NCBI GenBank assembly: GCA_017461425.1 | Contig: JAFTXY010000010.1 | Span: forward strand, 1 to 49,709 | Origin: Candidatus Gastranaerophilales bacterium | GTDB taxonomy: Bacteria; Cyanobacteriota; Vampirovibrionia; Gastranaerophilales; Gastranaerophilaceae | Length of the DNA stretch: 49,709 nt | Reading direction: 5' to 3' | Shown here: one piece after another, positions 3,685-20,173 of the stretch | Numbering within the stretch: the stretch's first letter is position 1 | Layout of the letters: each line of letters opens with the position of its first letter | Notes under the pieces: generated by a model | The model's database searches: none | What the model was told of the DNA's origin: nothing | The model's input: the letters and a program-made list of their open reading frames with translations, nothing else | Translations under genes and position numbers: made by a program

Positions 3685-3687
3685 TAG

Positions 3688-3894: not shown

Positions 3895-3913
3895 ACATTT
3901 CTCCTTTCATTAA

Positions 3914-5236
3914 TTAATCAAATGGTTCAAATTCACTCTCTACTATCGAATCAACCTGAAATGAATTTTGAATTAAGATATTAGAACAATAATTAATTGC
4001 ATAAAGCGCCATCATGGCACAGTCAGCGAAATCAGGGCTTTCATTTTGCTCTTTTCTTAATTCTTTTTTATCTTGAATTGCAATTAAACCATTGGGTTTA
4101 TAAGTCTTTTTTAAATATTCAAGCTGTCTTATTGAATTTTTATCTGTTAATTTTAAATAACCTTTTTCAAGATAATCTCTTAACGCTAAATACCCATCTG
4201 CTCTTGCATTTATTGCAAATTTTGAACAAGCTTTTTTTGCGCCACGAAACCCAATTGTTGAATTAATTATTTTTTGAATACTAATCCAAATTGGATAACC
4301 TAAGCCATCAGCATCCATAATAAGAATTTTGGGTTGCCATTTTGAATATAAAGATATTATTTTACCTTGAGTGACATCAGTATCAGATTCAGACCAACTA
4401 ATTGTTTCTTTTTCAAGCCAAGTAGTACTATTTTGTTGAACAAATAATTTAGCGACACATAAATCAGCACCAGATGCCGACAAATCTACACTCATAACCG
4501 AATTAACAAAATAAGAAGAGTCAACTTCAATTTTTAGATTAACTGAATTATCAAGAATTTCTGATGTAATTAAATATTCATTATTGTTCATTAAAGGATA
4601 TCCAAGCCAAATATGATTATAATCTGATATATTGGTATTTTTGGAAATTTCAGCTTCTTTAATAATTTTTTCATCTACAAAAGGATTATCAAAATAACAT
4701 ATATTAATGTGCAAACAATCTTTTCTTTTTGCGCAAAAATTATAAACAGAATCAAATCTTGTATATCTGTTCATTGTGAAGATTATTACAGAATTCTTTT
4801 TTCTAATTGTTGGAATTATGACATCTAAAGTAGGTTTTGTAATCGATTGAGCTTCATCAATCCAAAGAATATCAATACCTTCCAAACCTTTAATATTAAC
4901 TTTTCCTTGTTCCCTAAAACCTTTGAAAAAGATTTTAGAACCAGTATTTTTATTTGTTAAGCTATCATTTTTTATTTCAAAATCAAGATTGTATTGATTA
5001 ATTAAATCAATAAAAACGGTTTTAACAGATTCGTTAATAGAATTTTGAATCTCTCTACCGCAACATATTCTGACTCGACGATTTTCGCAAATATACAAAA
5101 GAAAACGGGCAGTGCTTTGTGTTTTTCCAGAAGCCCTGCCTCCTTCGAAGAGAAAATAAGAATAATGGTTGAAATGAAAAATAAAGGGATAGAGTTTAGG
5201 AGGGATGTTTAAAATTTCTGGCAAAACATAATTCAT
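3914..5236 (-). CDS. terL: Phage terminase large subunit (PBSX/Terminase_6-like ATPase + nuclease), 440 aa.
   Basis: Walker A FEGGRASGKTQS near the N-terminus, Walker B-like ILWIDEAQ. Size and C-terminal acidic nuclease-like region are typical. Confidence 0.8.
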   Translation of the reverse strand: MNYVLPEILNIPPKLYPFIFHFNHYSYFLFEGGRASGKTQSTARFLLYICENRRVRICCGREIQNSINESVKTVFIDLINQYNLDFEIKNDSLTNKNTGSKIFFKGFREQGKVNIKGLEGIDILWIDEAQSITKPTLDVIIPTIRKKNSVIIFTMNRYTRFDSVYNFCAKRKDCLHINICYFDNPFVDEKIIKEAEISKNTNISDYNHIWLGYPLMNNNEYLITSEILDNSVNLKIEVDSSYFVNSVMSVDLSASGADLCVAKLFVQQNSTTWLEKETISWSESDTDVTQGKIISLYSKWQPKILIMDADGLGYPIWISIQKIINSTIGFRGAKKACSKFAINARADGYLALRDYLEKGYLKLTDKNSIRQLEYLKKTYKPNGLIAIQDKKELRKEQNESPDFADCAMMALYAINYCSNILIQNSFQVDSIVESEFEPFD

Positions 5237-5239
5237 TAT

Positions 5240-5536
5240 TTATTCAAAATCTTCTCCTATGTTAAGTTTTAATTGTTTGCCATCCAAAGTTATTTGATTC
5301 ATTTGAACTTTGTTTAATGTTTTGATTTCTTTATTTGAGTACAAGCCTGCAATTTTTGCTTTATTTTCAATAGCTCTTAAAGCTGCAGAAATATTAGGAT
5401 TTCCGTTTTTATCAATACAATTTAGAGCAATTTCTTTGAGTTCATCAAACTCCCTTAGAGCATCTTCTTGCGTATATTTATTTTCATTTAAGGAAAAGTT
5501 GCTATATTTAATCAGTGAATTATTTTTATCACTCAT
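5240..5536 (-). CDS. Putative terminase small subunit (98 aa).
   Basis: Immediately upstream of terL with overlapping/adjacent stop-start. AALRAIENKAKIAGLYS resembles Terminase_2 small-subunit sequences. Confidence 0.4.
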   Translation of the reverse strand: MSDKNNSLIKYSNFSLNENKYTQEDALREFDELKEIALNCIDKNGNPNISAALRAIENKAKIAGLYSNKEIKTLNKVQMNQITLDGKQLKLNIGEDFE

Positions 5537-5912
5537 TTTCTATTTTTTTAATCAAAACTTTATTTCCGTAAAAATCGCAAGCATACTGTTCTATTGCAAT
5601 AATTTTTCCATTTTTTTTAATTTCTATATTTTTCCCATATTTAAAACCAGATGGCGCTTTATATTTGTTTTTATAGCCCAAAAGTGTTGATGCTACTTCC
5701 TTTTTAAATTTTTCCTTTATCTTAACAGCACCGCCAGAATAAAAATATTGTTCATAAAAATTTTTATGTTCATTATCGCAATAGAAATATAATGCCATTT
5801 TTTTATTACAAATTGGGCAATTGGCAATATATAATCTTCTATTAACTTGTGATTCTTTGTCAATCAAAAACCAAATATCTTCAGCTTGAAATACACTATT
5901 ACAATGACGCAT
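5529..5912 (-). CDS. Hypothetical Cys-rich (zinc-finger-like) protein (127 aa), first gene of the packaging operon.
   Basis: CPICNK...C..EH pattern. The start abuts the GC-rich repeat. Confidence 0.4.
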   Translation of the reverse strand: MRHCNSVFQAEDIWFLIDKESQVNRRLYIANCPICNKKMALYFYCDNEHKNFYEQYFYSGGAVKIKEKFKKEVASTLLGYKNKYKAPSGFKYGKNIEIKKNGKIIAIEQYACDFYGNKVLIKKIENE

Positions 5913-6120
5913 AGATACACTTATCCTATATTATTTCGTCAGCCTCGTTTCTCAACCTCAATCAAGTGAGCTTAGCCAGACGTGGCTTAGCGAGCGCAGA
6001 TTGAGGCAAAGGTGTGTGAGCAATGGTACAGCAAGCGATGAGCTTGGTGGACTATTGCAAAACCGTACCTCAATCAAGTGAGCTTAGCCAGACTTGGCTT
6101 TCACTTGGGTGATACAAATT
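5913..6120. repeat. GC-rich repeat region holding two related hairpin-containing units (5958-6008 and 6068-6111), inverted relative to 1-113.
   Basis: cctcaatcaagtgagcttagccagac(g/t)tggct occurs twice. Internal stems agcca-N4-tggct and cctcaatc...gattgagg. Reverse complement aligns to 40-113. Confidence 0.5.
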
Positions 6121-6222
6121 TGAATTGTCCGAAAATTACTTTTTTAGATTAACATATGTTTTTTAAAAAAGCTCGTTTTTTAGCCAAATCTTGTAAGACC
6201 TTACAAAAATATAGTATTTTTG

Positions 6223-6251
6223 TTGCTATTTTTTTATTTTTATTTTATAAT
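6223..6251 (+). promoter_or_regulatory. Candidate sigma70-type promoter for tRNA-His (-35 ttgcta, 17-nt spacer, -10 tataat).
   Basis: Hexamers read directly at 6223-6228 and 6246-6251, ~28 nt upstream of the tRNA 5' end. Confidence 0.35.
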
Positions 6252-6279
6252 AACAAGGCGCAAGCTGTAAGCAAATTAT

Positions 6280-6356
6280 GGCGCCTGTCGTCAAGTGGTC
6301 AAGACCTCGGATTGTGGTTCCGATATGCATGGGTTCGAATCCCATCAGGCGCCCCA
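6280..6356 (+). tRNA. tRNA-His (anticodon GTG) with encoded G-1 and 3' CCA.
   Basis: Cloverleaf folds by hand: acceptor GCGCCTG/CAGGCGC, G-1 paired to C73, anticodon arm TCGGA-TTGTGGT-TCCGA, T-arm ATGGG-TTCGAAT-CCCAT. The 3' half nearly matches E. coli tRNA-His. Confidence 0.92.
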
Positions 6357-6473
6357 TATATCAAAATCAACTCCCCTATTGGGAGTTTTTTTGTTGGTCG
6401 CCCTCGGGAGCAATCGCTCCGCTTTTGCCCTCTTGAAAAATGCTCAATGGTTCGCATTTTTCTGCGGCAGAGT
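6343..6473 (+). repeat. att-like repeat copy A (native attB side): tRNA-His 3' end (14 nt) + 74-nt downstream segment D + 43-nt segment S.
   Basis: Direct comparison with the copies at 6474-6561, 15429-15564 and 17946-18035. Confidence 0.8.
6369..6392 (+). terminator. Intrinsic terminator of tRNA-His (ctccc-ctatt-gggag + T7). It is part of the repeated att unit.
   Basis: GC stem with U-run directly after the tRNA. The same hairpin recurs at 6500-6523, 15446-15468 and 17988-18010. Confidence 0.7.
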
Positions 6474-6561
6474 CATCAGGCGCCCCATATATCAAAATCA
6501 ACTCCCCTATTGGGAGTTTTTTTGTTGGTCGCCCTCAGGAACAATCGCTCCGCTTTTGCCC
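6474..6561 (+). repeat. att-like repeat copy B: duplicated tRNA-His 3' end (catcaggcgcccca) + segment D' with SNPs (ctcaggaacaatcgc).
   Basis: About 97% identical to 6343-6430. Diverges into unique DNA at 6562. Confidence 0.8.
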
Positions 6562-6589
6562 TTATACATTGTCTTGCAGGTTGAGAATT

Positions 6590-6657
6590 TCCGACTTCAA
6601 AACGAGAATTTAACTCTCGAAATGAGAATTTTGGACAACTAGTTTTGAAATGTCGGA
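6590..6657. promoter_or_regulatory. Imperfect inverted repeat (tccgacttcaaaac ... gttttgaaatgtcgga) with three gagaattt direct repeats. Candidate recombinase-binding (res/att-like) site next to the resolvase gene.
   Basis: Arms at 6590-6603 and 6642-6657 are reverse complements with a 2-nt indel. Lies between the att copy and the serine recombinase gene. Confidence 0.3.
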
Positions 6658-6680
6658 CAGTTATTTTTGAAAACCTTTTT

Positions 6681-6694
6681 AGGAATAATTATTC
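6681..6694. promoter_or_regulatory. Perfect 14-bp palindrome ggaataattattcc upstream of the resolvase gene. Candidate operator/recombinase site.
   Basis: Perfect dyad symmetry. Shares the aataattatt core with the palindrome at 15587-15610. Confidence 0.3.
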
Positions 6695-6813
6695 CAATAA
6701 ATTTTCTCAAATTGGTTCCTATATTTTGGAGGAGTTCCTACAAAGAAAACATCTGTTAACAATAGTATGAATTTATACAAGAATAAGCAAAAATAAAGGT
6801 TTTTATCGAAACT

Positions 6814-7410
6814 ATGGCAACAAAAGCGTTTTAAAGAGTATCGACAGTACTTCAAGATACTGAAAAGAATAAGATTGATATACTACAATTTGCAAACAGC
6901 AAAAAACTAGGCAATGTAGAATTTATCGAAGAACATTGTTCCGGTCGAATAAGCTACAAAGATAGAAAATTAGGGAAACTACTGGAGTCTATGTATAAAG
7001 GTGATATTTTGATAGTACCAGAGCTTTCAAGGATTGCTCGCTCTGTTACACAAATACTTGAAGTAATAAAGATTACTAAAGATAAGGGTATTACACTTTA
7101 TTCACTAAAGGAAAACTTCTCTAATGAAGAGGACTCAATTTCTGCCACTGTAACAAGTACGATTTTTGCTCTTGTTGCTCAAATTGAAAGAGAATTAATA
7201 AGCTTGCGTACTCGTGAAGCTTTGCAAGCTCGTAAAGCTCAAGGAGTAAAACTCGGTAGACCCCAAGGCAAAGGTAAATCAAAGCTTGATGCCCACAAAG
7301 ACGATATAATAAAGATGTTATCTTTTGGAGTCCCAAAGACTCTTATAGCTAGGCAGTACAATACATCTGTAGGGAATTTATATAATTTTCTTGAAAAATC
7401 AAAATCCTAA
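6814..7410 (+). pseudogene. Small serine recombinase (resolvase/invertase family) disrupted by an in-frame TAA at codon 7 (6832-6834), just before the catalytic RVST serine motif.
   Basis: Reading frame MATKAF*RVSTVLQDTEKNKIDILQF...EEHCSGRISYKDRKLGKLLESMYKGDILIVPELSRIARS... continues into ORF 6991..7410, which carries the resolvase C-terminal HTH (PKTLIARQYNTSVGNLYNFL). Re-initiation at M57 would lack the catalytic serine. Confidence 0.75.
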
Positions 7411-7432
7411 AGACCTATGAAGTTAGGTCTTC
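7409..7432. terminator. Bidirectional hairpin (agaccta-tgaagt-taggtct) between the convergent resolvase and nuclease genes.
   Basis: 7-bp perfect stem located between two converging stop codons. Confidence 0.4.
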
Positions 7433-7446
7433 ATGGAGAATGTAAT

Positions 7447-8625
7447 TTAAAAAGAAACAGGACAAGGATTTACTATGTAGCAAGCTCTTTCATATAATTC
7501 ATCATAGGTTATGATTTCTACATTTCTACAATCACGTCTGTATCGCTCAAAAGTATTCGACTTAATCTTATCATTTATATTACCATTAGGATTTGGAATT
7601 TCTTTGCTATAATTACCAATGATAAAAACAACTTTAGAGTCTTGTACGTCGGCTTGTATTATTCTACCATCACTAGTAACAAATTCTTTTGAAGAATAGT
7701 TTTCAATTAAATCCTGTTTTTGAGCTAAACATTGACTAATCCCATCTATAAAATCAGAACTGAAAGACCATGTATTTGTTCTTGCAGTGCTTCTTCTAGC
7801 ATTAGTAAATATTGGAGTAGTATGCTTTTTTAACTCTACTAGAGTAGTATATTTATCGATGCAAACAAAATCACTTATAGGAGAGCCATGTCCACTTGTA
7901 TCAGGAGTTCCAATGTTAGCTTGAGGAATAATATCTCTTTGAAAAAATAATCTTAATGATATACCTGCAAATATCCAAGTATTAGTTTCAAAAAAAGCTT
8001 GCCAATCGTCTTCTGAAGTGTCGTCATCTTCGAGCAATGCTTTGAATGTTTCTAAAGATTTTTCTTTTGAAGTATCTAACAATCTTTCTAATTGTTGATA
8101 TGACAAATCTTTATCTTGTATAAATTCTTGTATTGTTTGTAGTTGTTCATCCACCTCGAAGCTATTAAACGTATCAATTAATTGGTCTTTACTAATAACT
8201 TTGTACTTGTTTTCAAACTCTCCCAGTTCAATTAAGTCATTAAATCCTTGAATAAAAGAAATCATTTCCCAAAATTTTGAAGCAATATCCCCCTCTTTAA
8301 GTGATATATTTACCTTTTCTTTTGAACCATCTTGGACTTGAGAGGTTACGTCTGCTTTTAGCTTATAAAAAGTAGGACGAGCAATAAATTTATTAGACTC
8401 TCTATTCTTATAAAAAGTCCAACTGCAAAAAGTATTGACTCTAGGATTGTTTGAGAGTTTAAACTCGGTAACAATAGACATTTTATCGTCTCTTTTGTTA
8501 ATATAACAGTGGTTACCGTCATTCGCCAAGCTTATCTCAATATCTCCCCAACTATCGCTATTTGTATCAAAGGATATTTTTTCAAAACCAGTAACAATAT
8601 CTTCCCAATTAATTAGCATTAACAT
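7447..8625 (-). CDS. DUF4263/Shedu-like putative PD-(D/E)xK nuclease, last gene of the defence operon (~392 aa).
   Basis: C-terminal motif GSPISDFVCIDKYTTLVELKK fits PD...ExK. The track start at 8634 is a TTG. An ATG at 8625 with a GAGG RBS is the more likely start, overlapping the upstream gene by 17 nt. Confidence 0.45.
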   Translation of the reverse strand: MLMLINWEDIVTGFEKISFDTNSDSWGDIEISLANDGNHCYINKRDDKMSIVTEFKLSNNPRVNTFCSWTFYKNRESNKFIARPTFYKLKADVTSQVQDGSKEKVNISLKEGDIASKFWEMISFIQGFNDLIELGEFENKYKVISKDQLIDTFNSFEVDEQLQTIQEFIQDKDLSYQQLERLLDTSKEKSLETFKALLEDDDTSEDDWQAFFETNTWIFAGISLRLFFQRDIIPQANIGTPDTSGHGSPISDFVCIDKYTTLVELKKHTTPIFTNARRSTARTNTWSFSSDFIDGISQCLAQKQDLIENYSSKEFVTSDGRIIQADVQDSKVVFIIGNYSKEIPNPNGNINDKIKSNTFERYRRDCRNVEIITYDELYERACYIVNPCPVSF

Positions 8626-11600
8626 TATCCTCAAAGTTTAATTTAGGTAAGCTTTTGACGATTTTTACTGTCGCTACAGACAATGAAATTACACTCAGGA
8701 GCAGGTCAAGTATGTATCTCGGTTTTCCGTGTTCTTCTGCCCAGTCATTCGGGTCATTCTTAATTTGACTGTCTTTGTTTATAGTTACTTGATAACGATC
8801 CATTACCCATTCAATAGCACTCTTACCATTTACCACATAGTCATAAGCAACTTCAGGTATATTTGTTATTCTGATATACGGATTATAAATAATTTCAGAC
8901 TTGTCTTCCTTACTTTTGAATCGCATTTTATCAACAGTAAATATTCCGCTTTCTTCTCCAATTACTTTTACTGTTGCAAGAGGAGCTTGGTCTTCATAGT
9001 TTAGATGTAATTTTGCCAAATCTCTGCCTGCATTAGAGAATGCCCAAAAATCTTCTACTTTATCAACCAATGGAATTCTTGGAAGCATTTTCTTTAAATC
9101 GGCAGCAAACTTGGTTCGATAATCTTCACTATGCAAGATGCCGTAAACATAATAGAAAATATCTTCTTTTGTTACCTTATGACCATATTTTTCTTTAGCA
9201 AGATTATGTATGAAGTCTGTTATACCGTCATGACGAATATATTTATCATTGTCTTCTTCTTGGTTTCCGAATAAAGATTGTTGTTGTGAGTTCTTCTTCT
9301 CATTTTCTTCATACCAATATAGAGGAAAACTCTGTGATTTTTCTATCATATCTAAACAAGGAATACTATTAACTATTAATGAAGAAAAATCCTTATTAGA
9401 CCCTGTTCCTGAAATGGAAATACAAATATTCTCATGCTTATTTGTTGGGAATATTTTGGGTAATTGATAAAGCATTTCATTAAAAGAATTATCTATATAA
9501 CCATTTTGTTTCACAAAGGGTCTATAAATACCTTCATATATTTTGTCAGGGTTAAATCGGCATTCTTTATTCAATTTTAGGCTATTTTTTAATGCTCTTG
9601 ACCAACTGATTTTTGTACTATCAGTATTTATAAATTCTTCAACTTCAATTTCTCTATTGTTTAAATAATCAATTCTTTGCGAATTATAGAAATTTATAGT
9701 ATTTTGCATGTTAATTATTAATTGTTCTTTTGAAGAATTGTAACACCAAGCATCACGACTAGTTACAACACCCCCCGAATATATAGAGAAAAATTTATTT
9801 TTATTTGTAGCATCTTTATCACCTATTGTCGGATATGTTCCAAATAAATCACTTCTCTGATTTAACCAATCATTGTGTTCATTTGGTTTAAGCATTGTTG
9901 GTTCAAATTTTGGCGATAATACAGAACCAACATTTTTAACTATATCAAGTTTTTCTTCTCTTGATAAATAATCACCTATATCATGGTAATATATTGTTAC
10001 TTTTTCTTTTTTGTCATTAGGATTCTTTACAAGTAAAGTTATTGATATAGGTGTTCTGCTACCCTCACCAAAGACATTACCTTTTTCTTTCCTTCTTTGT
10101 TCTCCTGATGTTCTTGCATTACCTCTTAAATTATATACATAAACAGAAGAAAATTCAGTCTCTAAACAATGTCGGAAGCCATCCATACCATTTGAATCCA
10201 ACCAACTACCATTAGATACATAGCAAATAATTCCGCCATTTGAATTTAACCTATCAGATGCCCATCTAAATGCTTTAATATAACTATCGTATAGTCCTTT
10301 ATTTAGAGTTGCATTAGAGTACCTAACATATGTTTCTGAAATCTTGGAATCTAATTTTTCATATTTTTGATTTTTTGCATTATCATTTTCTGACTTTTGA
10401 CCGATTGAATATGGTGGATTACCTACAATAACTGTAATAGGAGTCTCTTTTTGTTTTCGTACTCGTTTTACGTTACGAGGGAAGAATTCTGACGGTATCT
10501 TTTGTTGGTCTTCTTCTCCAAGTTGGAAAGTATCCGTTAAACATATACCCTCAAAGTTTTGGTATTCTCCTTCTTTAGCTCCGATTAAATCATGGTATGT
10601 GTTTTCAATGTTTATGGACGCTATATAATATGCTAACAGGACTATTTCGTTTGCATGAAGTTCCTCTTCATATTTACGTTTTAGGTCTTCTTTTTTAATA
10701 CGTCCTGACTGAAGTAGTCTTGTAATAAAAGTACCAGTACCCGTGAACGGGTCAAGGATATGCACATTTTTATCTGATATATCTCTGTTGAATTCTTTTT
10801 TCAGTACGTCAGCTACAGAGTTGATAATAAAATCAACAACTTCAACAGGAGTATAGACTATGCCCAGTTTCTCAACTACTTTAGGGAGTGCCGTTTTGAA
10901 GAATTTGTCATACAATTCAATAATGACTTTTTGCTTACCCTCAGCATTATCTATACCTTCGCAACGTTGTCTTACGTCAGCGTAGAATTTTTCTAAGGTT
11001 TCAGTTTCTTTATCAATAGCGTTTTCGTCAAGTATATCAAGAATTTTCTGCATAGCTATTGAAACAGAGTTATTACCGATAAAGGAATAATTTTCAAACA
11101 GAGCTTCAAATACAGGACGTGTGATAATATGCTGAGCTAACATTTCAATAGCTTCTTCCTGCATAATGTACGGGTTAATATTTGTATGCAGACCGTCCAT
11201 AAATTCTTTGAAATCGGCTTTGTATTTTTCGTCTGCTACAATACGGGTAATTCTATCCACGTGTCTTTGTGCAATCTGAGCTATATCTTTTGCCCACTGT
11301 TCCCAGTATTTACGGCTTCCGACTTTTTGAACCATACGGGCATATATTACACTTTGAAGTTCCCCAAATTGCATGGTCAGTTGTTTTACGACATTATCAG
11401 AGAGCTTCTCTTCAACACGTTCACGTTTATTTGTAGCAGAGTCTTTAGCTCCACCATCGTCTTCATGTCTAGGGACGCCACCGACAATAACAGTGCCATT
11501 GTCATTCGGGTTCTTTTTATTAAGGTCAATCTTATTTATCATAGCATTGAACCTGTCATCGTGTGCTCTAAGTGCGTTCAAGACAGTCCAAACAACTTTA

Positions 11601-13531
11601 AAGTTATCATTCTTATCAAGAGCTTCTTCGGGTTTAACATTTAAAGGTACTGCAACAGGAATGATAATGTATCCGTATTTTTTACCCTGAGCACGTCTCA
11701 TAACACGTCCTACGGATTGTACAACATCAACCTGTGAATTTCTTGCTGATAAAAACATAACTGCATCCAAAGATGGAACATCCACACCTTCAGAAAGACA
11801 GCGTACATTAGTAAGAATTCTACATTCTTTGCCATCTGTAGGTGCGTGTTTTAACCAAGAAAGTTTTTCATCTCTCATAGAAGCTCCCATCCCACCATCA
11901 ACGTGGTCTGCTTCTACGTTTACAACTTCATTACGTTCTTCTTCAGATAAGCTTTCATAGTAGCTTTCTGAGTGTGTATTAAAGATATTTTTAATTTTTT
12001 GAGATGCTTTAATATTAGGACAAAATGCTACTGCTGTGTGCATAGGGTTAGGGTCAGTTGCACTCAATAATTCAGCTTCATTTTCTTGTCCTGCATATTT
12101 AATCATGCGTTTTGATAAAGCATTTATACAACCTATAAGCTTTGTTGCATCATCTGTATTAATTTCATACTCAGGATTAGAAATTGCTTTTTGCAAGGTA
12201 TCAGGTACTTGGTCGTCAGTCAAAGTTAATACAAGTACTTTGTAATCAGATAACAGGTTATTTTGTACTGCTTCCCCAAATCCTATACGATAAATTTCTT
12301 CTCCATATAATCCTTCATCATCCATAGAACAGAGAATACAGTTATTATCTGTAGCTTTTTGTTTTGCATTATCATCGTATAACCTAGGGGTAGCCGTCAT
12401 ATATAAACGTTTTTTAGACTTAATTATCTGATTATCATGAACTTTAGTAAAAGCAGACTCTTCTTTATTACCTGCAAGAATAACACCTGTTGTACGGTGT
12501 GCTTCATCGCATATAATTAAGTCAAATTCTGCTTTATCTCCAAATTCAGATATAAGTTCTGCCTGAGCTTTAGCAATAACATCTATTGACTGATATGTAG
12601 AGAATACAACAGTCATTCCTTCTTTTTTAGTCGCCTGTATCCACTTGAATTGTTTAACAATGTTATGAACATTAGTTGATGCAGGAAGTGCTAAATCCGT
12701 TACTGAGGTTAGGTTATCATCAGTTTCATTCTTTGAAGTTTTCTTACTTGCTGTAGGGTCAGAACATATACAGATGGCATTTAACTTTTCTTCTGCTTCA
12801 GAATACCATTCATTAAGAGTTTGTCCTAAAAGTGCTATTGACGGTACTAAAAAAAGTATAAGTCCTTTTCCCCCTGTTTCATTTTCTGCAATTTTCAAAG
12901 AAGTATATGTCTTACCTGTACCGCAAGCCATAATGAGTTTACCTCTATTTTTTGTTTTAAAATATTCATGGGTATCATTTATAGCTTTGAGCTGATGTTT
13001 CATTGGAGTCTTCTTTTTAGCACGTGCTCCACTTCCTGATATTCCCTCATCAAGTTTATCCCAATCAACAGGAGACTCTTCAAGTTCTAATAAACTTAAT
13101 CTCGATACAGGTGGGTCTTGGTTTTTAATAGTATTTTCAGCTTCAGAGTTCCATTTATTAGTAGTTGAAATCCAAAGTCTATGAGTGAACTTTTGTTGAG
13201 TTCCGTTTTCATCAAAGAAAATTTTACTTGAAGTTGCAAGGAATGTATCTACATCGGGTTTTGTTATACGGTTATTTTCTTGAAAACATTTGCATTGAAC
13301 TGCCCAGTATTCATCTTTGTATGTTTTAACAACAATATCAATACCTATATCTTTTCCGCCAAAATCACTTCTATATGGAAATTCATTCCACAGCCAAACT
13401 TCTTTCAACTCTGAAGTATAACGAGGGTCTGTTTTTAGGTATGCTTGCATAAGTCTTTCAAAACGTGTACCTTTATCACGTTCAGAAAATGCTATCTTTC
13501 TATACTTTTCTAATATCTGTTCAAATCCCAT
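8609..13531 (-). CDS. Type ISP-like single-polypeptide restriction-modification enzyme, 1640 aa: N-terminal Mrr-like PD-(D/E)xK nuclease, SF2 DEAH translocase, gamma-class N6-adenine methyltransferase, C-terminal target-recognition domain.
   Basis: DIGIDIVV...YWAVQCK (Mrr-cat). Walker A MACGTGKTYT, DEAH box LIICDEAHR, motif III MTATP, motif VI QSVGRVMRR. MTase motif I ILDPFTGTGTF and motif IV VIVGNPPYS. Same domain order as LlaGI/LlaBIII. Confidence 0.8.
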   Translation of the reverse strand: MGFEQILEKYRKIAFSERDKGTRFERLMQAYLKTDPRYTSELKEVWLWNEFPYRSDFGGKDIGIDIVVKTYKDEYWAVQCKCFQENNRITKPDVDTFLATSSKIFFDENGTQQKFTHRLWISTTNKWNSEAENTIKNQDPPVSRLSLLELEESPVDWDKLDEGISGSGARAKKKTPMKHQLKAINDTHEYFKTKNRGKLIMACGTGKTYTSLKIAENETGGKGLILFLVPSIALLGQTLNEWYSEAEEKLNAICICSDPTASKKTSKNETDDNLTSVTDLALPASTNVHNIVKQFKWIQATKKEGMTVVFSTYQSIDVIAKAQAELISEFGDKAEFDLIICDEAHRTTGVILAGNKEESAFTKVHDNQIIKSKKRLYMTATPRLYDDNAKQKATDNNCILCSMDDEGLYGEEIYRIGFGEAVQNNLLSDYKVLVLTLTDDQVPDTLQKAISNPEYEINTDDATKLIGCINALSKRMIKYAGQENEAELLSATDPNPMHTAVAFCPNIKASQKIKNIFNTHSESYYESLSEEERNEVVNVEADHVDGGMGASMRDEKLSWLKHAPTDGKECRILTNVRCLSEGVDVPSLDAVMFLSARNSQVDVVQSVGRVMRRAQGKKYGYIIIPVAVPLNVKPEEALDKNDNFKVVWTVLNALRAHDDRFNAMINKIDLNKKNPNDNGTVIVGGVPRHEDDGGAKDSATNKRERVEEKLSDNVVKQLTMQFGELQSVIYARMVQKVGSRKYWEQWAKDIAQIAQRHVDRITRIVADEKYKADFKEFMDGLHTNINPYIMQEEAIEMLAQHIITRPVFEALFENYSFIGNNSVSIAMQKILDILDENAIDKETETLEKFYADVRQRCEGIDNAEGKQKVIIELYDKFFKTALPKVVEKLGIVYTPVEVVDFIINSVADVLKKEFNRDISDKNVHILDPFTGTGTFITRLLQSGRIKKEDLKRKYEEELHANEIVLLAYYIASINIENTYHDLIGAKEGEYQNFEGICLTDTFQLGEEDQQKIPSEFFPRNVKRVRKQKETPITVIVGNPPYSIGQKSENDNAKNQKYEKLDSKISETYVRYSNATLNKGLYDSYIKAFRWASDRLNSNGGIICYVSNGSWLDSNGMDGFRHCLETEFSSVYVYNLRGNARTSGEQRRKEKGNVFGEGSRTPISITLLVKNPNDKKEKVTIYYHDIGDYLSREEKLDIVKNVGSVLSPKFEPTMLKPNEHNDWLNQRSDLFGTYPTIGDKDATNKNKFFSIYSGGVVTSRDAWCYNSSKEQLIINMQNTINFYNSQRIDYLNNREIEVEEFINTDSTKISWSRALKNSLKLNKECRFNPDKIYEGIYRPFVKQNGYIDNSFNEMLYQLPKIFPTNKHENICISISGTGSNKDFSSLIVNSIPCLDMIEKSQSFPLYWYEENEKKNSQQQSLFGNQEEDNDKYIRHDGITDFIHNLAKEKYGHKVTKEDIFYYVYGILHSEDYRTKFAADLKKMLPRIPLVDKVEDFWAFSNAGRDLAKLHLNYEDQAPLATVKVIGEESGIFTVDKMRFKSKEDKSEIIYNPYIRITNIPEVAYDYVVNGKSAIEWVMDRYQVTINKDSQIKNDPNDWAEEHGKPRYILDLLLSVISLSVATVKIVKSLPKLNFEDNVNAN

Positions 13532-13536
13532 GTATA

Positions 13537-15000
13537 TTACCCCTCTTCAGTTTCCAGTTTCTTGTAAAATTCTACAACTTCTTTATTTGCTACAATTTTG
13601 TTATGGTCAAACCCTCTTATAATAAGTCCATCAAGAGTTCTCGTTCTACTCAATGCTACGTATGCTTGTCCGTAATCAAATATCCTATTGAAATTGACCA
13701 CCAATTTATCAAATGTCATCCCCTGAGACTTATGTATAGTTATACCATAAGCAAGACGTAAAGGGTATTGTGTCCGCTTAATCTTAGTACGTCCTTCTTT
13801 TATGTATTCAAATTCTACAGGAAGTAAATTTGCACGTACCCCATTATCAAACTGTATATCAATAGAACCACCTGTCAGCTGTTTAACTGTACCGCAACTT
13901 CCATTTGCTAATCCTTTTTTAACGTCAATATTCTTTAGAAGCATTACCCTACAACCTTCTTTAAGTTCTAGTTTTTCAGGAGCTTTACAGTCATCATTAA
14001 ACTTCTTTAATGCCATTAAATCATACTTATTAACATTCTTATTGGTTATGTCTTTAGTATTCAATACTGTTACAGATTGCTCTCCAACATCATTGTAAAT
14101 ATAAAGTTCATCTTTAGCTTCATAAGTATAAGGTCTTTCAGGTATCTCATTAAAACACTTATCATTATAGGCATCTGCATCAGCATTAGTTCCAAATATC
14201 TGAAGAATGTCTCTTGATGCTTCATATTCAGGCTCGACATCTCTTTTGTAAAATACTTTCAGGTCTTCAGCACTTGTTTTATCTATACGAACATTATTTA
14301 ATGCTTCTGAAAGTTCTTTCTCTGACTGACGTTTTACCTCTTTTAAAACAACAGGTTTTAAATTTAAGTCATTCCATGTCTGACTATTGAAGCAGAAGTC
14401 TTTTCCGTCTTCTTTCATGCGCACAGGAGGTAATTGAAAGAAATCACCAAATATGAGAACCTGAATACCACCAAAAGGTTTATCATTTTCTCGTATTGCT
14501 TTTAGAACCTCATTAACATAATCAAAGGTAATATTATCTAACATAGATATTTCATCAATAGCAAGCATTTCACAACATAGTAAAGTTTTATACAATGTAG
14601 GTTTTCTACGTATTTTACTAACAACATCTTCGACTGGTTTCTCAGCAAGTCCTATTCCTGCCCAAGAATGAAGAGTCTGTCCATTAACATTAATAGCAGA
14701 TATTCCAGTCGTACTTGTTATATGTAGCTTCTTATCATACTTTTCTTTAAGCTTATTTAGGGTATACGACTTCCCAACTCCAGCACCACCTGTAATGAAG
14801 ACATTATACCCACTATCTATAAGTGAAAGGATTTTTTTTATATTAACATCCTTAGGTTCTTCTATAGGTGTATTTATGTTGTTATCTATTCTATTTTTAT
14901 TACGAAGCCATGAGAACATAGTCTTATTATAGTATAAGAAAGCATCTTCTGTAACTTTGTTAAGTTTTATATTCGCTCTTATAATAGCAGGCAAATACAT
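13537..15000 (-). CDS. PIF1/RecD-like SF1 DNA helicase (AAA_30 + UvrD_C-like), 487 aa. First gene of the operon.
   Basis: Walker A ITGGAGVGKS. Motifs LAIDEISM, GDFFQLPPV, AYGITIHKSQGMTFDKL, YVALSRTRTLDGL. Its stop is 5 nt from the next start, and the RBS of the next gene overlaps its stop. Confidence 0.75.
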   Translation of the reverse strand: MYLPAIIRANIKLNKVTEDAFLYYNKTMFSWLRNKNRIDNNINTPIEEPKDVNIKKILSLIDSGYNVFITGGAGVGKSYTLNKLKEKYDKKLHITSTTGISAINVNGQTLHSWAGIGLAEKPVEDVVSKIRRKPTLYKTLLCCEMLAIDEISMLDNITFDYVNEVLKAIRENDKPFGGIQVLIFGDFFQLPPVRMKEDGKDFCFNSQTWNDLNLKPVVLKEVKRQSEKELSEALNNVRIDKTSAEDLKVFYKRDVEPEYEASRDILQIFGTNADADAYNDKCFNEIPERPYTYEAKDELYIYNDVGEQSVTVLNTKDITNKNVNKYDLMALKKFNDDCKAPEKLELKEGCRVMLLKNIDVKKGLANGSCGTVKQLTGGSIDIQFDNGVRANLLPVEFEYIKEGRTKIKRTQYPLRLAYGITIHKSQGMTFDKLVVNFNRIFDYGQAYVALSRTRTLDGLIIRGFDHNKIVANKEVVEFYKKLETEEG

Positions 15001-15428
15001 TTTGAATGCATATCAACAACAACACATACTATCAGTATGTAGTTCGTCGCAGGCTCCTCACTCCATATTTTAAGTACTTGTCTTTGCAGAGACACACTCT
15101 TAATTTCTTTATCTTCTCCTATTATTTTCGCTTTAAAAATTTTTACTTTTTATGATAATTATTTTTATATAAATCTCTATATAAACAGACTAAACAACAA
15201 TAGCAATAGAGTTTTGACATTTATTAATACAACAAAAAATATTAAAATTTATATAGCAATAGATATTAAGAGACACATTCAAGACCAAGTATTCTCCTAA
15301 TATTATAATAGGTTTGCATACTACGTTTGATAATAACAACTAGATTTTTATAGGTAAATCTACCTTTATCAGGTAATTCTATTGGCATTTTGTCTTCCCC
15401 TAAAGGTTCTAAAATCATCCAATCTCCA

Positions 15429-15564
15429 GCCCCATATATCAAAATCAACTCCCCTATTGGGAGTTTTTTGTTGGTCGCCCTCGGGAGCAACCGCTCCGCT
15501 TTTGCCCTCTTGAAAAATGCTCAATGGTTCGCATTTTTCTGCGGCAGAGTCATCAGGCGCCCCA
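15429..15564 (+). repeat. att-like repeat copy C: partial tRNA-His 3' end + D (T6 variant, aaccgctcc SNP) + S + tRNA 3' end (catcaggcgcccca).
   Basis: Near-identical to 6351-6487. Marks the boundary between island 1 and island 2. Confidence 0.8.
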
Positions 15565-15586
15565 TTACAATAAAAATTACAATAAG

Positions 15587-15610
15587 AGTTGCAATAATTA
15601 TTGCAACTCT
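15587..15610. promoter_or_regulatory. Perfect 24-bp palindrome gagttgcaataattattgcaactc between att copy C and the 675-aa gene. Candidate operator/recombination site.
   Basis: Perfect dyad. Preceded by tacaataa direct repeats. Confidence 0.3.
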
Positions 15611-15644
15611 TTTGTGTTATTATTAGGCAAAAGGAGTCTTTTTT

Positions 15645-17672
15645 ATGAGTGAAAACATGGTGTCTGCAATAATAGTTGTAATAGTAATTGGGGTAATTTT
15701 GTATCAAGTCTTTTCTTCAAAACAAAAAGAAGAATCTACACCAAAGAATGTTGTTTCAGATAAATTACAAGCATTGTTTGATATGTCACCAAACGATTTT
15801 GCAACTAAAATTTTAGCATCAAAAATTGGTGATTTTTCATCACCCATAACAAAACACCTAAACCTGCCTGAAAGTACTGTAAAAGAGGTTATACATTCTG
15901 CACCTAAATATATGTTTGAATTTAGTATGCTAATTTTATATTTTGCATATGCAGTTTCAAAATCTCGTAACAAAGAAATATCTTATAGTAACTTACTAAA
16001 CTTTGCTACAAAATCTGCTATTTCAGGTATGGGAATGCTTGCATTTGGAATAGACAAAAGAATCTATGATAACTTTGAACCCGTGTTTAAAAATCGTATG
16101 GAATTGTATAACAATAAATCAAATTCTCAAATTAAAAATATTTTATGCAATCTATGCTTTGAAGAAATAAAAGAGGGCAAACCTGTAATTAAAAAAGAAG
16201 TAACTGATAATACAATTAGTGGTATGCCTTTATTTATAGACCATTTGAACAATGTTTTTGCAGGGAATGAATTGTATGTTTTTTCTGAATTAGTATTTAT
16301 GTATATAGACCATAACAGAAAATTATTCGAAACATCAGAAGAAGATACTTCTAACGAATCAGAACACATAGAAACACTAATGTATGATATCGATAGACCT
16401 GAACCTTCGCAGTTCTTTGTAGATACAAGGAAATTAGTAGGAAATTGGTTACAGCAAAGAATGAATCAAATAGATGGAACTCGTTGGATAAAAGGTTATT
16501 TGACTTATCCTGCATTTGAACACCTATCTTTTTCCTATAAAAATCAAATATTTTGTGTAGTTGTAGATATTATTGATGAAAATACAAAAGAATCTTGTTT
16601 GCCTGAAGAAACTAAAAGTTTGCTAATCAATGAATGTAAAAAAAATAATTTAATTCCATGTTTATACAAAGTTTTAGTCGATAATCCTAAAAATCCTGCA
16701 TACAATACACTCAAACAATATAGCGATGGTTGGAATTTATTTGATGCAAGAACAAATGAACCGGTTATTCCTGAAAGGTTAGGAACAGACGATTTTGTAG
16801 AAATGTCTGAATGGGAATTAAACGATTTTGCTATTCAAATTGTAAGAGATTACATAACAGATAATCTAAAATTAAAAATTCTATCCTATCAAAATATTGT
16901 GGGTGTTGACCCACAACTTTGGTTTATGGATGACAATCGTAAAAAAAACTATGTAATTGTAAGGTACACTATGTATCCTAATAAAGATGTTAAAATGCCA
17001 AATAACATTTCAGGTATTCAAAATAAATGTAAAGGTTATGATGGTTTTTTTGCAAGTGTTGCATTTTGCTCAAAAGGAGAAAATCCTTCAATGTTATATA
17101 GAGGTCAAGAATCTTATATTTCCTTTGACGGTTTAAAGAAATTAGAACCTTTAAAAGAAATTCCAACATTACCATTAGAAGAATTTGCATTAAAAATTTC
17201 TGCAAAAGTTGCAAATACTTTTATAAAATTTAATTTAAAAAATTTAACCGAAGATGAAAGATTAGATTATTTATATATGTATTCAACTGAATTGTTACTC
17301 TGCATATACTCTAATTTAATAGTTGAAAGAAATACAAGTGCAAATGAAAATAATTTATTCCCGATATTTTTAGCATATTTAGAAAAAATGACACCCCCTA
17401 ATCATAGAAATTTAATTGATTGGACAAATGTTGTTATGAGTAGATGCAAAATTTATCGGCAAATGGTGAACTTGGATAAAGATACCTATAGTTTATATTT
17501 TACTAAACTTTGTCAGCACGAAATTATTAATGGAACTATCTATACATATGAATCAATAGAAAATATACCGACAACTTCGTATGATAGCAAGTTGAACCGT
17601 TTCTATGAGGAAATTACAAAGACAAATATAATTTATGATATAAAAAATAAACTAAAAAGTTATTTATCGTAA
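15645..17672 (+). CDS. Hypothetical membrane-anchored protein (N-terminal TM helix, 675 aa). Sole cargo of the island bounded by att copies C and D.
   Basis: AGGAG RBS. Hydrophobic segment AIIVVIVIGVILYQVF at the N-terminus. No recognised catalytic motif. Confidence 0.6.
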   Translation: MSENMVSAIIVVIVIGVILYQVFSSKQKEESTPKNVVSDKLQALFDMSPNDFATKILASKIGDFSSPITKHLNLPESTVKEVIHSAPKYMFEFSMLILYFAYAVSKSRNKEISYSNLLNFATKSAISGMGMLAFGIDKRIYDNFEPVFKNRMELYNNKSNSQIKNILCNLCFEEIKEGKPVIKKEVTDNTISGMPLFIDHLNNVFAGNELYVFSELVFMYIDHNRKLFETSEEDTSNESEHIETLMYDIDRPEPSQFFVDTRKLVGNWLQQRMNQIDGTRWIKGYLTYPAFEHLSFSYKNQIFCVVVDIIDENTKESCLPEETKSLLINECKKNNLIPCLYKVLVDNPKNPAYNTLKQYSDGWNLFDARTNEPVIPERLGTDDFVEMSEWELNDFAIQIVRDYITDNLKLKILSYQNIVGVDPQLWFMDDNRKKNYVIVRYTMYPNKDVKMPNNISGIQNKCKGYDGFFASVAFCSKGENPSMLYRGQESYISFDGLKKLEPLKEIPTLPLEEFALKISAKVANTFIKFNLKNLTEDERLDYLYMYSTELLLCIYSNLIVERNTSANENNLFPIFLAYLEKMTPPNHRNLIDWTNVVMSRCKIYRQMVNLDKDTYSLYFTKLCQHEIINGTIYTYESIENIPTTSYDSKLNRFYEEITKTNIIYDIKNKLKSYLS

Positions 17673-17945
17673 AATCACTTTTGAAAAACTTTGCAGATAA
17701 AAAATCAAAGTGAATATTAGAAATTTTTCAAATTTAAGCACACCACTTCTCTATGTTAGATATAACCTCTGTTTCATGTAAACACAATTGAGTAAATTCG
17801 GCATAATTGGGTTTGCGTCTTGTCCCATTACTCGCTCCATTAAATAGACTCCTTTAGAGAGTCTATTTTAGTATGGGAATCGAACCGTTGTTTTCGCTTT
17901 GCTGCAACAATGGTTCTCCCCCTCAGAAAACGTGCCACCGGCACC

Positions 17946-18035
17946 TTTTCTGCGGCAGAGTCATCAGGCGCCCCATATATCAAAATCAACTCCCCTATTG
18001 GGAGTTTTTTGTTGGTCGCCCTCGGGAGCAATCGC
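17946..18035 (+). repeat. att-like repeat copy D: partial S + tRNA-His 3' end + 60 nt of D (T6 variant).
   Basis: Identical to the corresponding parts of copies A and C. Diverges at 18036. Confidence 0.8.
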
Positions 18036-18044: not shown

Positions 18045-19187
18045 TTAATCCAAAAGTGACGAAACGAGCTCTTTTGCGTAAAGCTCAGATTCTTTATCAA
18101 AACTACTCATTTTAGTAATTTTATCGCTTGGAATTTTACCTACAATTTCAATATCAGATGGTTTTATTGAATCTGTATAAAAATACTCTAATGGTTTATC
18201 ATTATACTCATCTAATTTGTCCAATCCTATGCCTTCTTGAATTCGCTGTAGATAATCAGAAAGAAAAATGTTCATAACAATATTTTCGGCGCCTAAGTTA
18301 TCATTTGGCGCAATTTTATTATCAATAAGATAATCTTCTAATAAAGTGTAATCATCGCTATCTTGTTCTGATAATAATCGATATTGAGGAAAAGGATTTA
18401 AAATATCTTCCTGATTTCTAACTTTAATTTTATCTAAATTAAGATTTCTTGTAGGTACTTTTAATAAAACCAATCCAGCATTTTCATCAGAATGAAATGC
18501 GCAATGATGCAATAATTTAACCAACAAAGATTTTTCTATGCTTGAGTTTTGTTTATTTGTTAAATTTGCCCAATTATGCAGCAAATCACTTTCAGAAACA
18601 AAAAAGCAGGCTTTTTCACCGTCTTCAATTAATCGTTTGTCAAAAGACATATTTAATCCATTTTTTAGAATGCCTGCAAGATTATCTGCATGAGTTATAT
18701 GATATAAATATTCAGGCAATTTTTTTGCATCTTGCTGAGCAATTTCAGGGGTAACAAATGCTGTTTTAGAAACTACTTCATCAGATGAAAACTCAATTCT
18801 TTTCCTTATTGAACCATCTTTATTGAAAGTCTTTTTAATTGCATTGCCATTTGGTTGTCTATCAAGAGTATATAGCTTCACTCCATCTTTTGAATAAACA
18901 GTATCAATTATTGAACCGTATGGAGTATTAACCTTTTGATATAACATAATACCATTAGTATTATATAATCGAAATTTGCCAGGAGTTGTTGTTGTATAAA
19001 ATCTTACTTCGCCTGCATTATTTTTAATTTCGGTTTTATAAACATTTTCCGTATTTATCAAGTCAGGCTGTTGGGATTGAAATGCTCTAATGCTTGCATC
19101 ATCAGTTCTCGAAGCTAATTTATCTGCCGATTTATGCAATTTTATTCTAGAAAAAAATTCTTTTGGATTAATACTTATAGTATGCAT
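18045..19187 (-). CDS. Fusion protein (380 aa): N-terminal MORN/YwqK-like repeats + DarT/Tpt1-like ADP-ribosyltransferase domain.
   Basis: EYLYHITHADNLAGILKNGL closely matches the DarT (DUF4433) signature YHITHIDNLKGIL and the Tpt1 motif LYHGT...IL..GL. The N-terminal G...Y..NG-type repeats (FYTTTTPGKFRLYNTNGIMLYQK...) resemble YwqK/MORN variants. ATG start with AAGGGGA RBS. Confidence 0.55.
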   Translation of the reverse strand: MHTISINPKEFFSRIKLHKSADKLASRTDDASIRAFQSQQPDLINTENVYKTEIKNNAGEVRFYTTTTPGKFRLYNTNGIMLYQKVNTPYGSIIDTVYSKDGVKLYTLDRQPNGNAIKKTFNKDGSIRKRIEFSSDEVVSKTAFVTPEIAQQDAKKLPEYLYHITHADNLAGILKNGLNMSFDKRLIEDGEKACFFVSESDLLHNWANLTNKQNSSIEKSLLVKLLHHCAFHSDENAGLVLLKVPTRNLNLDKIKVRNQEDILNPFPQYRLLSEQDSDDYTLLEDYLIDNKIAPNDNLGAENIVMNIFLSDYLQRIQEGIGLDKLDEYNDKPLEYFYTDSIKPSDIEIVGKIPSDKITKMSSFDKESELYAKELVSSLLD

Positions 19188-19285: not shown

Positions 19286-20173
19286 ATGAATACATTAAAA
19301 CTACAAAATTCAATATTTAAAATAATTATAGAATTATTTATTTGGAACAAAAAAGCTCGCTCGAAAGCAAAAGCAAATTGGACAAAATGGCATTTAAAAA
19401 AATATGTCAATAAAGCGATAAAAGAAACACAAATAGAAAATATTAAAACAAATAATGAAAGACCAATAATTTGGCAATATTGGCATCAAGGAATAGAAAA
19501 TGCACCATTATTAATTCAAAAATGCATAGAATCAACTAAAAAATTTCATCCTGATTACGAAATAAAGGTTTTATCATTCGAAAACATAAACGACTATGTT
19601 GATATTCCAAAAAAATATTATGATTTATTAGAGCAAAAGAAGATTCCTATCGCAATATTTAGCGATATTTTAAGATTATATCTATTAACAAAATATGGGG
19701 GATGTTGGGTGGATGCAACATTATATTTTACAGGAAGAATCCCTGATAAAATATTAAATTCAAAATTCTTTGTGCCCCAAAAAAATCCAAAGACTGATGC
19801 TTTTGGCGATAAAATGTCTTGTTATTTTATTCGCTCAGATAAAGATTCTATATGGATTCACTTAATAAAAAATGCTATTGAAAATTATTGGAATGAAAAC
19901 GATTATTTAATTCATTATTTTATGTTTGAGCATGTAGTTTCTATGATTTCAGAATCAACAAAAGAATTAAAAAATGACTGGAAAAAAATGCCTTTCATTT
20001 TGACTCAAGAATTTGAAATATTTAGAAAAAATTTATATGACACATATTCTGATGAACTATTTAAGGAAATCAAAAAAACATCATTTATGCACAAATTATC
20101 GTATAAAATCATCCAAAATTCATCAAATAGCAATACCTTCTATGATAAAATCATAAACAATGAGCTATTTTAG
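19286..20173 (+). CDS. Glycosyltransferase with DXD motif (capsular polysaccharide synthesis / OCH1-like sugar-binding family), 295 aa.
   Basis: IWQYWHQG...PIAIFSDILRLYLLTKYGGCWVDAT is characteristic of the Gly_transf_sug / Caps_synth family. Confidence 0.6.
   Translation: MNTLKLQNSIFKIIIELFIWNKKARSKAKANWTKWHLKKYVNKAIKETQIENIKTNNERPIIWQYWHQGIENAPLLIQKCIESTKKFHPDYEIKVLSFENINDYVDIPKKYYDLLEQKKIPIAIFSDILRLYLLTKYGGCWVDATLYFTGRIPDKILNSKFFVPQKNPKTDAFGDKMSCYFIRSDKDSIWIHLIKNAIENYWNENDYLIHYFMFEHVVSMISESTKELKNDWKKMPFILTQEFEIFRKNLYDTYSDELFKEIKKTSFMHKLSYKIIQNSSNSNTFYDKIINNELF

Follow-up and report, generated by a model that had tools for sequence, protein, structure and literature searches.

The stretch of DNA analysed here, 49,709 nt from a Candidatus Gastranaerophilales bacterium (contig JAFTXY010000010.1, positions 1 to 49,709; assembly GCA_017461425.1), is referred to in its entirety as the window and carries a tRNA-His(GTG) gene behind which the gene's own 3' end recurs as an array of direct repeats. 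A prophage lies to the left of the gene, and to its right lie two islands, short units without cargo and the beginning of a third cargo region (Table 1). Loci and contigs used for comparison are denoted by L numbers.

The last 14 nt of the tRNA gene, the core (CATCAGGCGCCCCA), occur exactly at 6343, 6474, 15551 and 17962 of the + strand, where 0.02 copies would be expected in the whole window and none of 100 shuffles contained four matches. There are no more core copies anywhere else in the window, including the DNA right of core4, and a tRNA-Gln gene at 47472-47546 has no companion unit. The array thus consists of tRNA-His, three further exact copies of the core and two diverged tRNA 3' halves, all on the + strand, together with a terminator segment (A) present four times and a segment S present twice and once more as a 16-nt part. 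As in the Islander layout, the intact tRNA stands at one end and 3' fragments displaced in the same direction stand at the other joints. All four A copies contain a terminator-like hairpin and are mutually 95-99% identical over 60-75 nt, and S1 and S3 are identical (42/42). The T run of segment A is T7 in A1 and A2 but T6 in A3 and A4; A2 differs further by two G>A changes and A3 by one T>C change.

An earlier reading made from the sequence alone had described four recurrences behind tRNA-His and the copy-specific variants of A, and the 14-mer counts, the shuffles and the alignment bear out both. Its third copy is also present, although the left side of that copy lacks 9 of the 14 core bases. 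Two further points require revision: 17840-17945, which had been placed in island 2, is a terminator followed by a fuller S-type unit, and the A-copy SNPs, expected to tell host-derived from element-derived attachment (att) arms and to mark the crossover, can be assigned to neither.

Table 1. Features of the tRNA-His locus and its flanks (window coordinates)
Feature	Position	Strand	Remarks
BPP-1-like podovirus prophage, right-hand part	1-5912	-	extends past the window's left end
Portal	2050-3684	-	Pfam Head-tail_con; matches BPP-1-type phages
Large terminase (TerL)	3914-5236	-	Pfam Terminase_3
Small phage ORFs	5240-5912	-	
Phage-derived non-coding region	5913-6280	+	conserved with L072, L078 and viral contig L086
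tRNA-His promoter TTGCTA-17-TATAAT	6223-6251	+	phage-type
tRNA-His(GTG)	6281-6356	+	ARAGORN and Rfam; last 14 nt are core copy 1
core1	6343-6356	+	
Cargo-less unit 1	6357-6487	+	A1 + S1 + core2; 131 nt
A1	6357-6431	+	75 nt; terminator 6369-6387
S1	6432-6473	+	42 nt
core2	6474-6487	+	
A2	6488-6562	+	second terminator-segment copy; two private G>A changes
Island 1	6563-15404	.	Pfam and PADLOC
Non-coding left module, conserved ~110 nt	6563-~6680	.	common to L009 and L084
Small serine recombinase pseudogene	6814-7410	+	~198 aa; Resolvase + HTH_7; stop read from sequence
Shedu SduA	7447-8634	-	
Type ISP restriction-modification enzyme	8609-13531	-	1640 aa
Pif1-like helicase	13537-~14913	-	
Diverged tRNA 3' half	15405-15434	+	closes island 1; retains only GCCCCA of core; GGTTCTAAAATCATCCAATCTCCAGCCCCA
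Cargo-less unit 2	15435-15564	+	A3 + S3 + core3
A3	15435-15508	+	T6 run
S3	15509-15550	+	in cargo-less unit 2
core3	15551-15564	+	
Island 2 cassette	15565-17839	+	98-99% identical to L110
Island 2 own terminator	15584-15611	+	
Membrane-anchored 675-aa protein (ORF675)	15645-17672	+	uncharacterised
Diverged tRNA 3' half	17809-17839	+	ends ..TCCCATTACTCGCTCCA
Most complete X' unit with terminator and core4	17840-17975	+	related to L030, L069, L025 and L057 units
Terminator	17840-17869	+	between island 2 and X' unit
X' unit	17872-17961	+	final 16 nt are the end of S
X' reverse-complement T-arm	17872-17887	+	
X' hairpin a	~17882-17916	+	then GGTTCTCCCCC
X' hairpin b	17925-17951	+	then GCGGCAGAGT and core4
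core4	17962-17975	+	
A4	17976-18035	+	first 60 nt of terminator segment; next cargo region interrupts
380-aa protein (ORF380), first gene of third region	18045-19187	-	weak DarT/KptA-like N-terminal motif

Chimeric joins at a short repeat could in principle produce such an array as an artefact of metagenome assembly. The window is a scaffold of a metagenome-assembled genome (MAG), and one short-read contig, L001, ends inside A4, although a break at this point is also what a true repeat would give. The repeats, at 89-136 nt, fit within read length; the gene neighbourhood of the left flank is the same on five contigs that carry the left-flank protein (from a look-up summary, with one contig inspected); and the architecture recurs in independent species, among them the hifiasm-assembled MAG chromosome record L026 and L110 and L112. 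An assembly artefact is therefore considered extremely improbable.

The ORF675 cassette and other cargo

The island 2 cassette also occurs in L110. L110 represents a different host, in which the gene upstream is GlnA, the tRNA-His acceptor differs and the core reads CATCATCCGCCCCA; its order is tRNA-His, terminator, a unit of its own, a second core and the ORF675 cassette. Identity between the window and L110 is 98-99% from 15565 (CCCCA|TTACAAT), the first base past the core, to ~17887, while to the left of the core the two are unrelated and their flanks have only 11 of 14 core bases in common. The presence of the same cassette, with the same starting base, in two hosts with different cores and flanks shows that it was inserted precisely at the tRNA 3' end. 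Since each host retains its own core as far as ..GCCCCA, the joint lies in the last ~6 nt of the core or just beyond, and it is this comparison of two hosts, not the A-copy SNPs, that brackets the crossover. The proposal of the sequence-only reading that the cores delimit separately acquired DNA thus gains support from the second host, where the cassette has the identical junction. On the right, near-identity to L110 extends through the terminator and the first 16 nt of X', after which identity falls to ~55%; beyond ~17887, hairpins a and b of X' still pair, relative to L110, by way of compensatory changes.

In the diverged tRNA 3' half that closes the cassette, 13 of 17 core-region bases match, and 23 of 2000 shuffles score equally well. 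Ends of this composition, in which a diverged tRNA 3' half is followed by terminator, unit and core, are found in the window, L110, L112, L057 and L025. Neither island 2 nor either of the short units carries an integrase. The 675-aa protein has 18 relatives only, which are located amid genes for AbiJ, GmrSD, HamA, AbiH and methylases, so that neighbourhood alone suggests an association with defence.

Island 1 is larger and encodes Shedu, a Type ISP restriction-modification enzyme, a Pif1-like helicase and a disrupted recombinase. The recombinase frame opens with an ATG at 6814 and is interrupted at codon 7 by an in-frame TAA (6832-6834), just ahead of the catalytic RVST motif. In another species (L112-L115), a related island has 84% nucleotide identity across the part spanning the ISP and Pif1 genes, an intact 201-aa recombinase (L113:10003-10608) and other genes where Shedu sits. 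At its end in L112 lies TATCAGTCGCCCCA, which matches 12 of the 14 core bases; beyond it come a terminator and then three units in tandem, all closing with the core of their own host. The pseudo 3' half of island 1 in the window is weaker and, taken alone, not significant (369 of 2000 shuffles). A single defence-type payload per island had been expected, which is wrong: island 1 carries several defence systems, and island 2 a single uncharacterised gene that its neighbours alone connect with defence.

The left end of island 1 differs from that of island 2 in that the island starts only after A2. A2 is therefore island 1's leading arm or else the stump of a unit that island 1 interrupted. A terminator and the 5' part of a unit, repeated after a second core and followed by foreign DNA, are also found in L010, L015, L019 and L030. 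The non-coding left module of island 1 also opens unrelated cargo directly behind tRNA-His in L009 and L084. Its first bases (ATTGTCTTGC) are the reverse complement of the conserved GCAAGACAAT of the structured unit X described below, an inversion that hints at a possible inverted site. A search for the left-end motif in viral contigs gave chance-level matches only.

Past 18036 another cargo region does begin, as the sequence-only reading had supposed, and interrupts A4; no distal boundary was found for it. Its first gene, ORF380, has a weak DarT/KptA-like N-terminal motif and is not an integrase; a decayed integrase was considered and rejected. In another species a homologue of ORF380 (L011:1011-1790; 23% identity, E = 1e-10) occupies the same antisense position beside tRNA-His. 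Further to the right, 19286-25440 is of very low GC content (22-26%) and encodes a protein of capsular-polysaccharide synthesis, a prenyltransferase of the UbiA family and, side by side, two 505-aa ORFs that match nothing in Pfam; this block may belong to the third acquired region.

The prophage flank and serine recombinases at tRNA-His

Species-representative genomes were scanned for the 3' 26 nt of the tRNA, which yielded 83 loci, nearly all of them from Gastranaerophilales/Melainabacteria gut MAGs. Nucleotide BLAST of the window against these loci gave almost no similarity outside the tRNA, and comparisons were therefore made by structure or protein. Exact-pattern scans (S plus core, and core plus A) returned zero matches in genome, metagenome and viral collections, indicating that close relatives are rare in those collections. 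At most of these loci an OmpR-type response-regulator gene lies upstream of tRNA-His, and a conserved promoter stands between the two. In the window, L072 and L078, by contrast, a common phage flank and phage-type promoter stand immediately upstream of tRNA-His, in the place that the response-regulator gene and a different promoter hold in most other species. The TerL of the window's prophage is 79% identical to that of L086, an IMG/VR contig, and L002 carries the phage genes further.

In L086 the order is a p127 homologue, the same non-coding repeats as in the window, a promoter, a phage-borne tRNA-His and a convergent, overlapping gene for a 510-aa large serine recombinase (LSR), an arrangement that is an attP built on a tRNA copy. 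Given the same phage family on the left and the phage-type promoter, we infer that the tRNA-His gene of the window is probably the attR-side hybrid copy at the right-hand junction of an LSR prophage. The LSR gene, the host's original promoter and the original 5' part of the tRNA would then lie at the far-left end of the prophage, outside the window. Two 34-nt direct repeats (5955-5988 and 6067-6100; 97% identical) are located between the small phage ORFs and the tRNA promoter, are conserved in the phage-bearing loci L072, L078 and L086, and may constitute a phage packaging or regulatory site. Between promoter and tRNA-His, L086 also holds a fragment (5730-5830, - strand) that opens like the 5' end of tRNA-His (GGCGGGTGTCGCCAA) and then diverges.

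Sequence downstream of tRNA-His is highly diverse among the related loci. In a tBLASTn search with the L086 LSR as query, 12 of 81 related species gave an LSR match of >=150 aa located at the 3' end of tRNA-His or no more than ~200 nt from it, and ~13 additional species retain short C-terminal LSR remnants. Directly after tRNA-His, 32 of 81 related loci show no feature of the kinds compared here. Full LSR ORFs with Resolvase, Recombinase and Zn-ribbon domains are present in L045 and L032 (550 and 578 aa), where the genes converge on tRNA-His and terminate 58 nt inside the tRNA. Serine integrases have been stated as not known to target tRNA genes (PMC4383910, PMC7192596). The view that tRNA-His is a recurrent integration site is thus upheld across the order by LSR genes at the tRNA itself.

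No LSR is present in the window. Among the window ORFs that were scanned none has a Phage_integrase domain, and those scanned between 1 and 26211 have no tyrosine recombinase domain; the list of LSR homologues has no entry from the window's scaffold. An integrase had been predicted beyond the third island; the recombinases of the locus are instead the pseudogene in island 1 and the LSR that would be situated to the left of the tRNA.

The structured units X and X'

In nine of the related species, tRNA-His and its terminator are followed by a ~150-nt unit, designated X, that ends in a second copy of the last 14-19 nt of the tRNA. L052 has a variant form of X, and eight other species keep just its 5' part ahead of foreign DNA. 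RNAalifold predicts a three-way junction. In helix P1 the T-stem 3' strand and the beginning of the acceptor pair with a 5' segment, helix P2 joins GAACC to GGUUC, and P3 forms a long hairpin in place of the T-loop. A covariance model of X identified 19 strong copies. In their alignment, which was fitted to the model and hence favours structure, 95.1% of cells pair as against 80.5% in shuffles, and 18 of 32 pairs change on both sides, a number reached by none of 500 shuffles; slid controls of the alignment pair at 28-48%. The excess of G-U over A-C pairs (36 and 9, respectively) assigns the fold to the tRNA-sense strand. X also occurs behind other tRNAs and in two viral contigs, and at every site the local tRNA type is matched both by the 3' end of X and by the partner strands in helices P1 and P2. 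This patchy distribution across species and tRNAs indicates that X behaves as accessory DNA.

Examples of X behind several tRNA types are found at L039:6459-6621, L012:896-1049, L027:3325-3473 and L120:14095-14246, and conserved single-stranded motifs within it include GCAGAG, CGUUUAACGC and CAAGAC. A hammerhead ribozyme was considered for the motif CUGAUGAG and rejected, as the motif is not conserved and has no Rfam match; in the window, as in eight loci bearing X or X', tRNA was the sole match to Rfam 15.

X itself is absent from the window, and the X covariance model misses the window's units. These constitute a separate subfamily, X', common to L030, L069, L025, L057 and L110. MAFFT/alifold analysis of X' was hampered by poor alignment of the sequences. 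The L030 unit folds in a tRNA-like manner (z = -5.2); its acceptor-like stem spans 8 bp and its tail reads CCCA. The stretch 17866-17975 of the window has a folding z of -4.4. S-type units fold weakly (z = -1.6), and S is a truncated derivative of an X' unit from which hairpin b has been deleted. What the sequence-only reading took for a degraded T-arm is thus not simply that, but a truncated member of a conserved, lineage-wide family of structured, tRNA-mimicking units. That reading had also named two findings that would tell against att sites. Repeats without cargo do occur, as tandem units in relatives and behind other tRNAs, and in part count against it. A dispersed MITE-like element, on the other hand, does not fit, as all copies in the window lie at one locus and every unit of the relatives closes with the adjacent tRNA's 3' end or with a tRNA-like one.

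Two side observations concern the distribution of these modules. An X'-like 3' part, made up of hairpin b and TCGGCAGAGT, lies ~210 nt ahead of tRNA-His in L045 and is joined there to a different end sequence, GCTCAGTATGATTC, so that the X' module is not confined to tRNA-His cores. In L057, ~920-1530 nt past tRNA-His, an X unit is split by a one-ORF insertion bounded by GGTCGGGTTTTAACCCGAC-type hairpins, which may be an IS200/IS605- or RAYT-like element.

On a rival view, the units are resident functional elements of the tRNA-His locus that were duplicated in tandem by unequal crossing-over between the end of the tRNA and the core of the unit. The islands would have been gained or swapped by homologous or homology-facilitated illegitimate recombination, for which the units served as portable homology, and the repeats would not be att sites at all. 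Such an origin is supported by the strong covariation of X, by cargo-less units behind tRNA-His in at least 11 species (three in tandem in L112), and by a repeated terminator and 5' part that are near-identical within a genome and different between species. The 95-99% likeness of the A copies, the block shared with L110 stopping inside X' and the varied positions at which foreign DNA joins X fit it as well. It does not, however, account readily for the left junction of ORF675, which falls on the same base in two hosts whose 11 of 14 shared core bases are too few for homologous recombination. The cassettes also carry diverged tRNA 3' halves of their own, genuine integrases target exactly the tRNA-His 3' site, and X is patchy even for the same tRNA (for the tRNA that ends in ..CATCGGCA, X is present in L010 and L035 and missing from L039). 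We consider duplication of a resident element unlikely, though it explains several features of the array.

A different role is suggested by the fact that structure rather than sequence is conserved in X (95% of cells pairing, 18 of 32 pairs doubly changed, one strand folded). X and X' could be the recombination sites proper, acting as folded single strands like integron attC or CTX-phage attP, with stems that imitate the T-arm and acceptor of the target tRNA, in an integron-like platform with a recombinase supplied in trans. Variation of the P1 and P2 helices with the identity of the neighbouring tRNA, the end of the island 2 shared block in X' hairpin a, and the alternation of cargo-less units with integrase-less cassettes would agree with this. 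As in integron attI/attC arrays, small recombinase-less mobile cassettes are spaced by structure-conserved elements. The parallel is weakened by several differences: the window yielded neither an IntI-type nor an HUH enzyme, core motifs of attC are absent, and the cassettes have neither an orientation nor a promoter logic in common, their orientation being mixed and each having terminators and promoter-like regions of its own. The X and X' units adopt three-way or tRNA-like folds that close with a tRNA 3' end, unlike attC hairpins. Serine recombinases, the only family found at the site and a family different from that of integrons, act on double-stranded DNA; the left junction is at the end of the core, that is, at the tRNA 3' end, and not within a unit; and the alignment behind the pair counts was itself fitted to a model. 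That X and X' are folded-strand recombination sites is thus improbable.

Probable accretion at the tRNA-His 3' end and its parallels

The explanation we favour, and consider probable, is that the tRNA-His 3' extremity (..GCCCCA|T) is an attachment site reused by serine-recombinase elements in Gastranaerophilales and that the window is the accumulated outcome. It builds on the repeats, the linkage of LSR genes to tRNA-His in relatives, the phage-type left flank and the one cassette identically placed in two hosts, and from these we infer the enzyme that would have moved each segment and the order of events. On the left, the BPP-1-like prophage would have contributed the phage promoter and the phage tRNA 5' part that now make up the tRNA gene. 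The right-hand stack would comprise four segments, each closed by a real or diverged tRNA 3' end: the 131-nt cargo-less unit, island 1, the second cargo-less unit, and the ORF675 cassette, which has no integrase, together with its tRNA-like X' unit. The last of these units would have been cut into by yet another cargo region. Every insertion would leave behind a core and a terminator and so regenerate the target, allowing the next element to enter at any core. Cassettes without a working recombinase presumably depended on an LSR acting in trans, for example the one encoded by the resident phage family. The formation of tandem arrays through restoration of the core at both ends is established (PMC7192596, PMC4383910, bioRxiv 10.1101/2020.12.28.424599).

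Several observations weigh against serial integration as the whole explanation. There is no intact recombinase in the window. If the A segments were arms that had arrived with unrelated elements, near-identity of A1 to A4 would not be expected; it points instead to duplication in situ or to homologous exchange. Near-identity to L110 stops within X' (~17887) and not in a core, so that a single crossover does not explain both ends of island 2, and island 1 begins after A2 rather than immediately behind a core. In relatives, junctions between X units and foreign DNA fall at many positions, and selection for structure in X and X' would not be expected of an att scar. Accretion by repeated site-specific integration, as put forward in the sequence-only reading, is accordingly largely right but incomplete, and the unit is not just an att scar.

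A tentative and at present doubtful extension of serial integration is that X and X' represent a new class of functional structured element. They would serve an integron-like platform, either as its module for recombination or landing or as a tRNA-mimic RNA, and that platform would stack integrase-less defence cassettes behind tRNAs by means of phage serine recombinases acting in trans. Such an element would be a ~100-280-nt fold in which a conserved hairpin domain is inserted between reverse-complement and split direct copies of the T-arm and acceptor 3' strand of the neighbouring tRNA.

Tandem accretion at tRNA genes is well known. The arrays at tRNA and tmRNA genes described as Islander/TIGER islands and as Prochlorococcus tycheposons resemble the present one in having an intact tRNA at one end and direct 3'-end repeats at the joints, newer elements that displace older ones outward, degenerate or cargo-only members, and adaptive or defensive cargo. 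With the tycheposons the locus shares a tandem, tRNA-proximal layout, and island 1 has a Pif1-like helicase and a serine recombinase. Those arrays, however, are described as driven by tyrosine integrases, whereas only serine-family recombinases (LSRs and a small resolvase-like enzyme) are found at this site; most segments here are integrase-less, and the joints are spaced by a conserved structured unit undescribed there.

Composite islands of the staphylococcal cassette chromosome (SCC) contain tandem stacks of recombinase-less cassettes that are mobilised in trans. Insertion at a 3' end, direct repeats bounding the cassettes and the lack of a recombinase in some of them are traits that the present locus shares with SCC and the Enterococcus cassette chromosome. 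At rlmH, SCCmec and the Enterococcus element employ large serine recombinases for gene-sparing 3'-end insertion, and their cassettes are bounded by direct-repeat att sites (PMC6222049). A comparable LSR linkage is seen in relatives and in the related phage contig, with none in the window itself. The likeness is one of description, and there are differences: the target is a tRNA rather than rlmH, a single LSR gene, phage-borne or overlapping the target, takes the place of the ccrAB pair inside the cassette, and the tRNA-like structured units have no SCC counterpart.

A small resolvase-like serine recombinase reportedly integrates the phage phiRSM into a tRNA 3' end, that of tRNA-Ser. Island 1 and its relatives likewise carry a ~200-aa Resolvase + HTH_7 protein near one end, at a tRNA 3' end; the resemblance is again one of description, and the window gene, unlike that of phiRSM, is a pseudogene with no definable att site.

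What is new at this locus is that the recombinases of the site belong to the serine family and include large serine integrases whose frames finish inside the tRNA, and that the joints are spaced by a covarying, tRNA-matched structured element without an Rfam family. Pairs of LSR and att site from such loci are candidate genome-engineering tools with a universal, non-disruptive tRNA target. Should the structured element join in recombination or prove to be an RNA that mimics a tRNA, a site or RNA of a new kind would have been found. Most of the stacked segments are small, integrase-less anti-phage cassettes, one of them at an identical junction in two hosts, and their accumulation at tRNA-His offers a simple route for the shuffling of defence genes in uncultured gut Melainabacteria.

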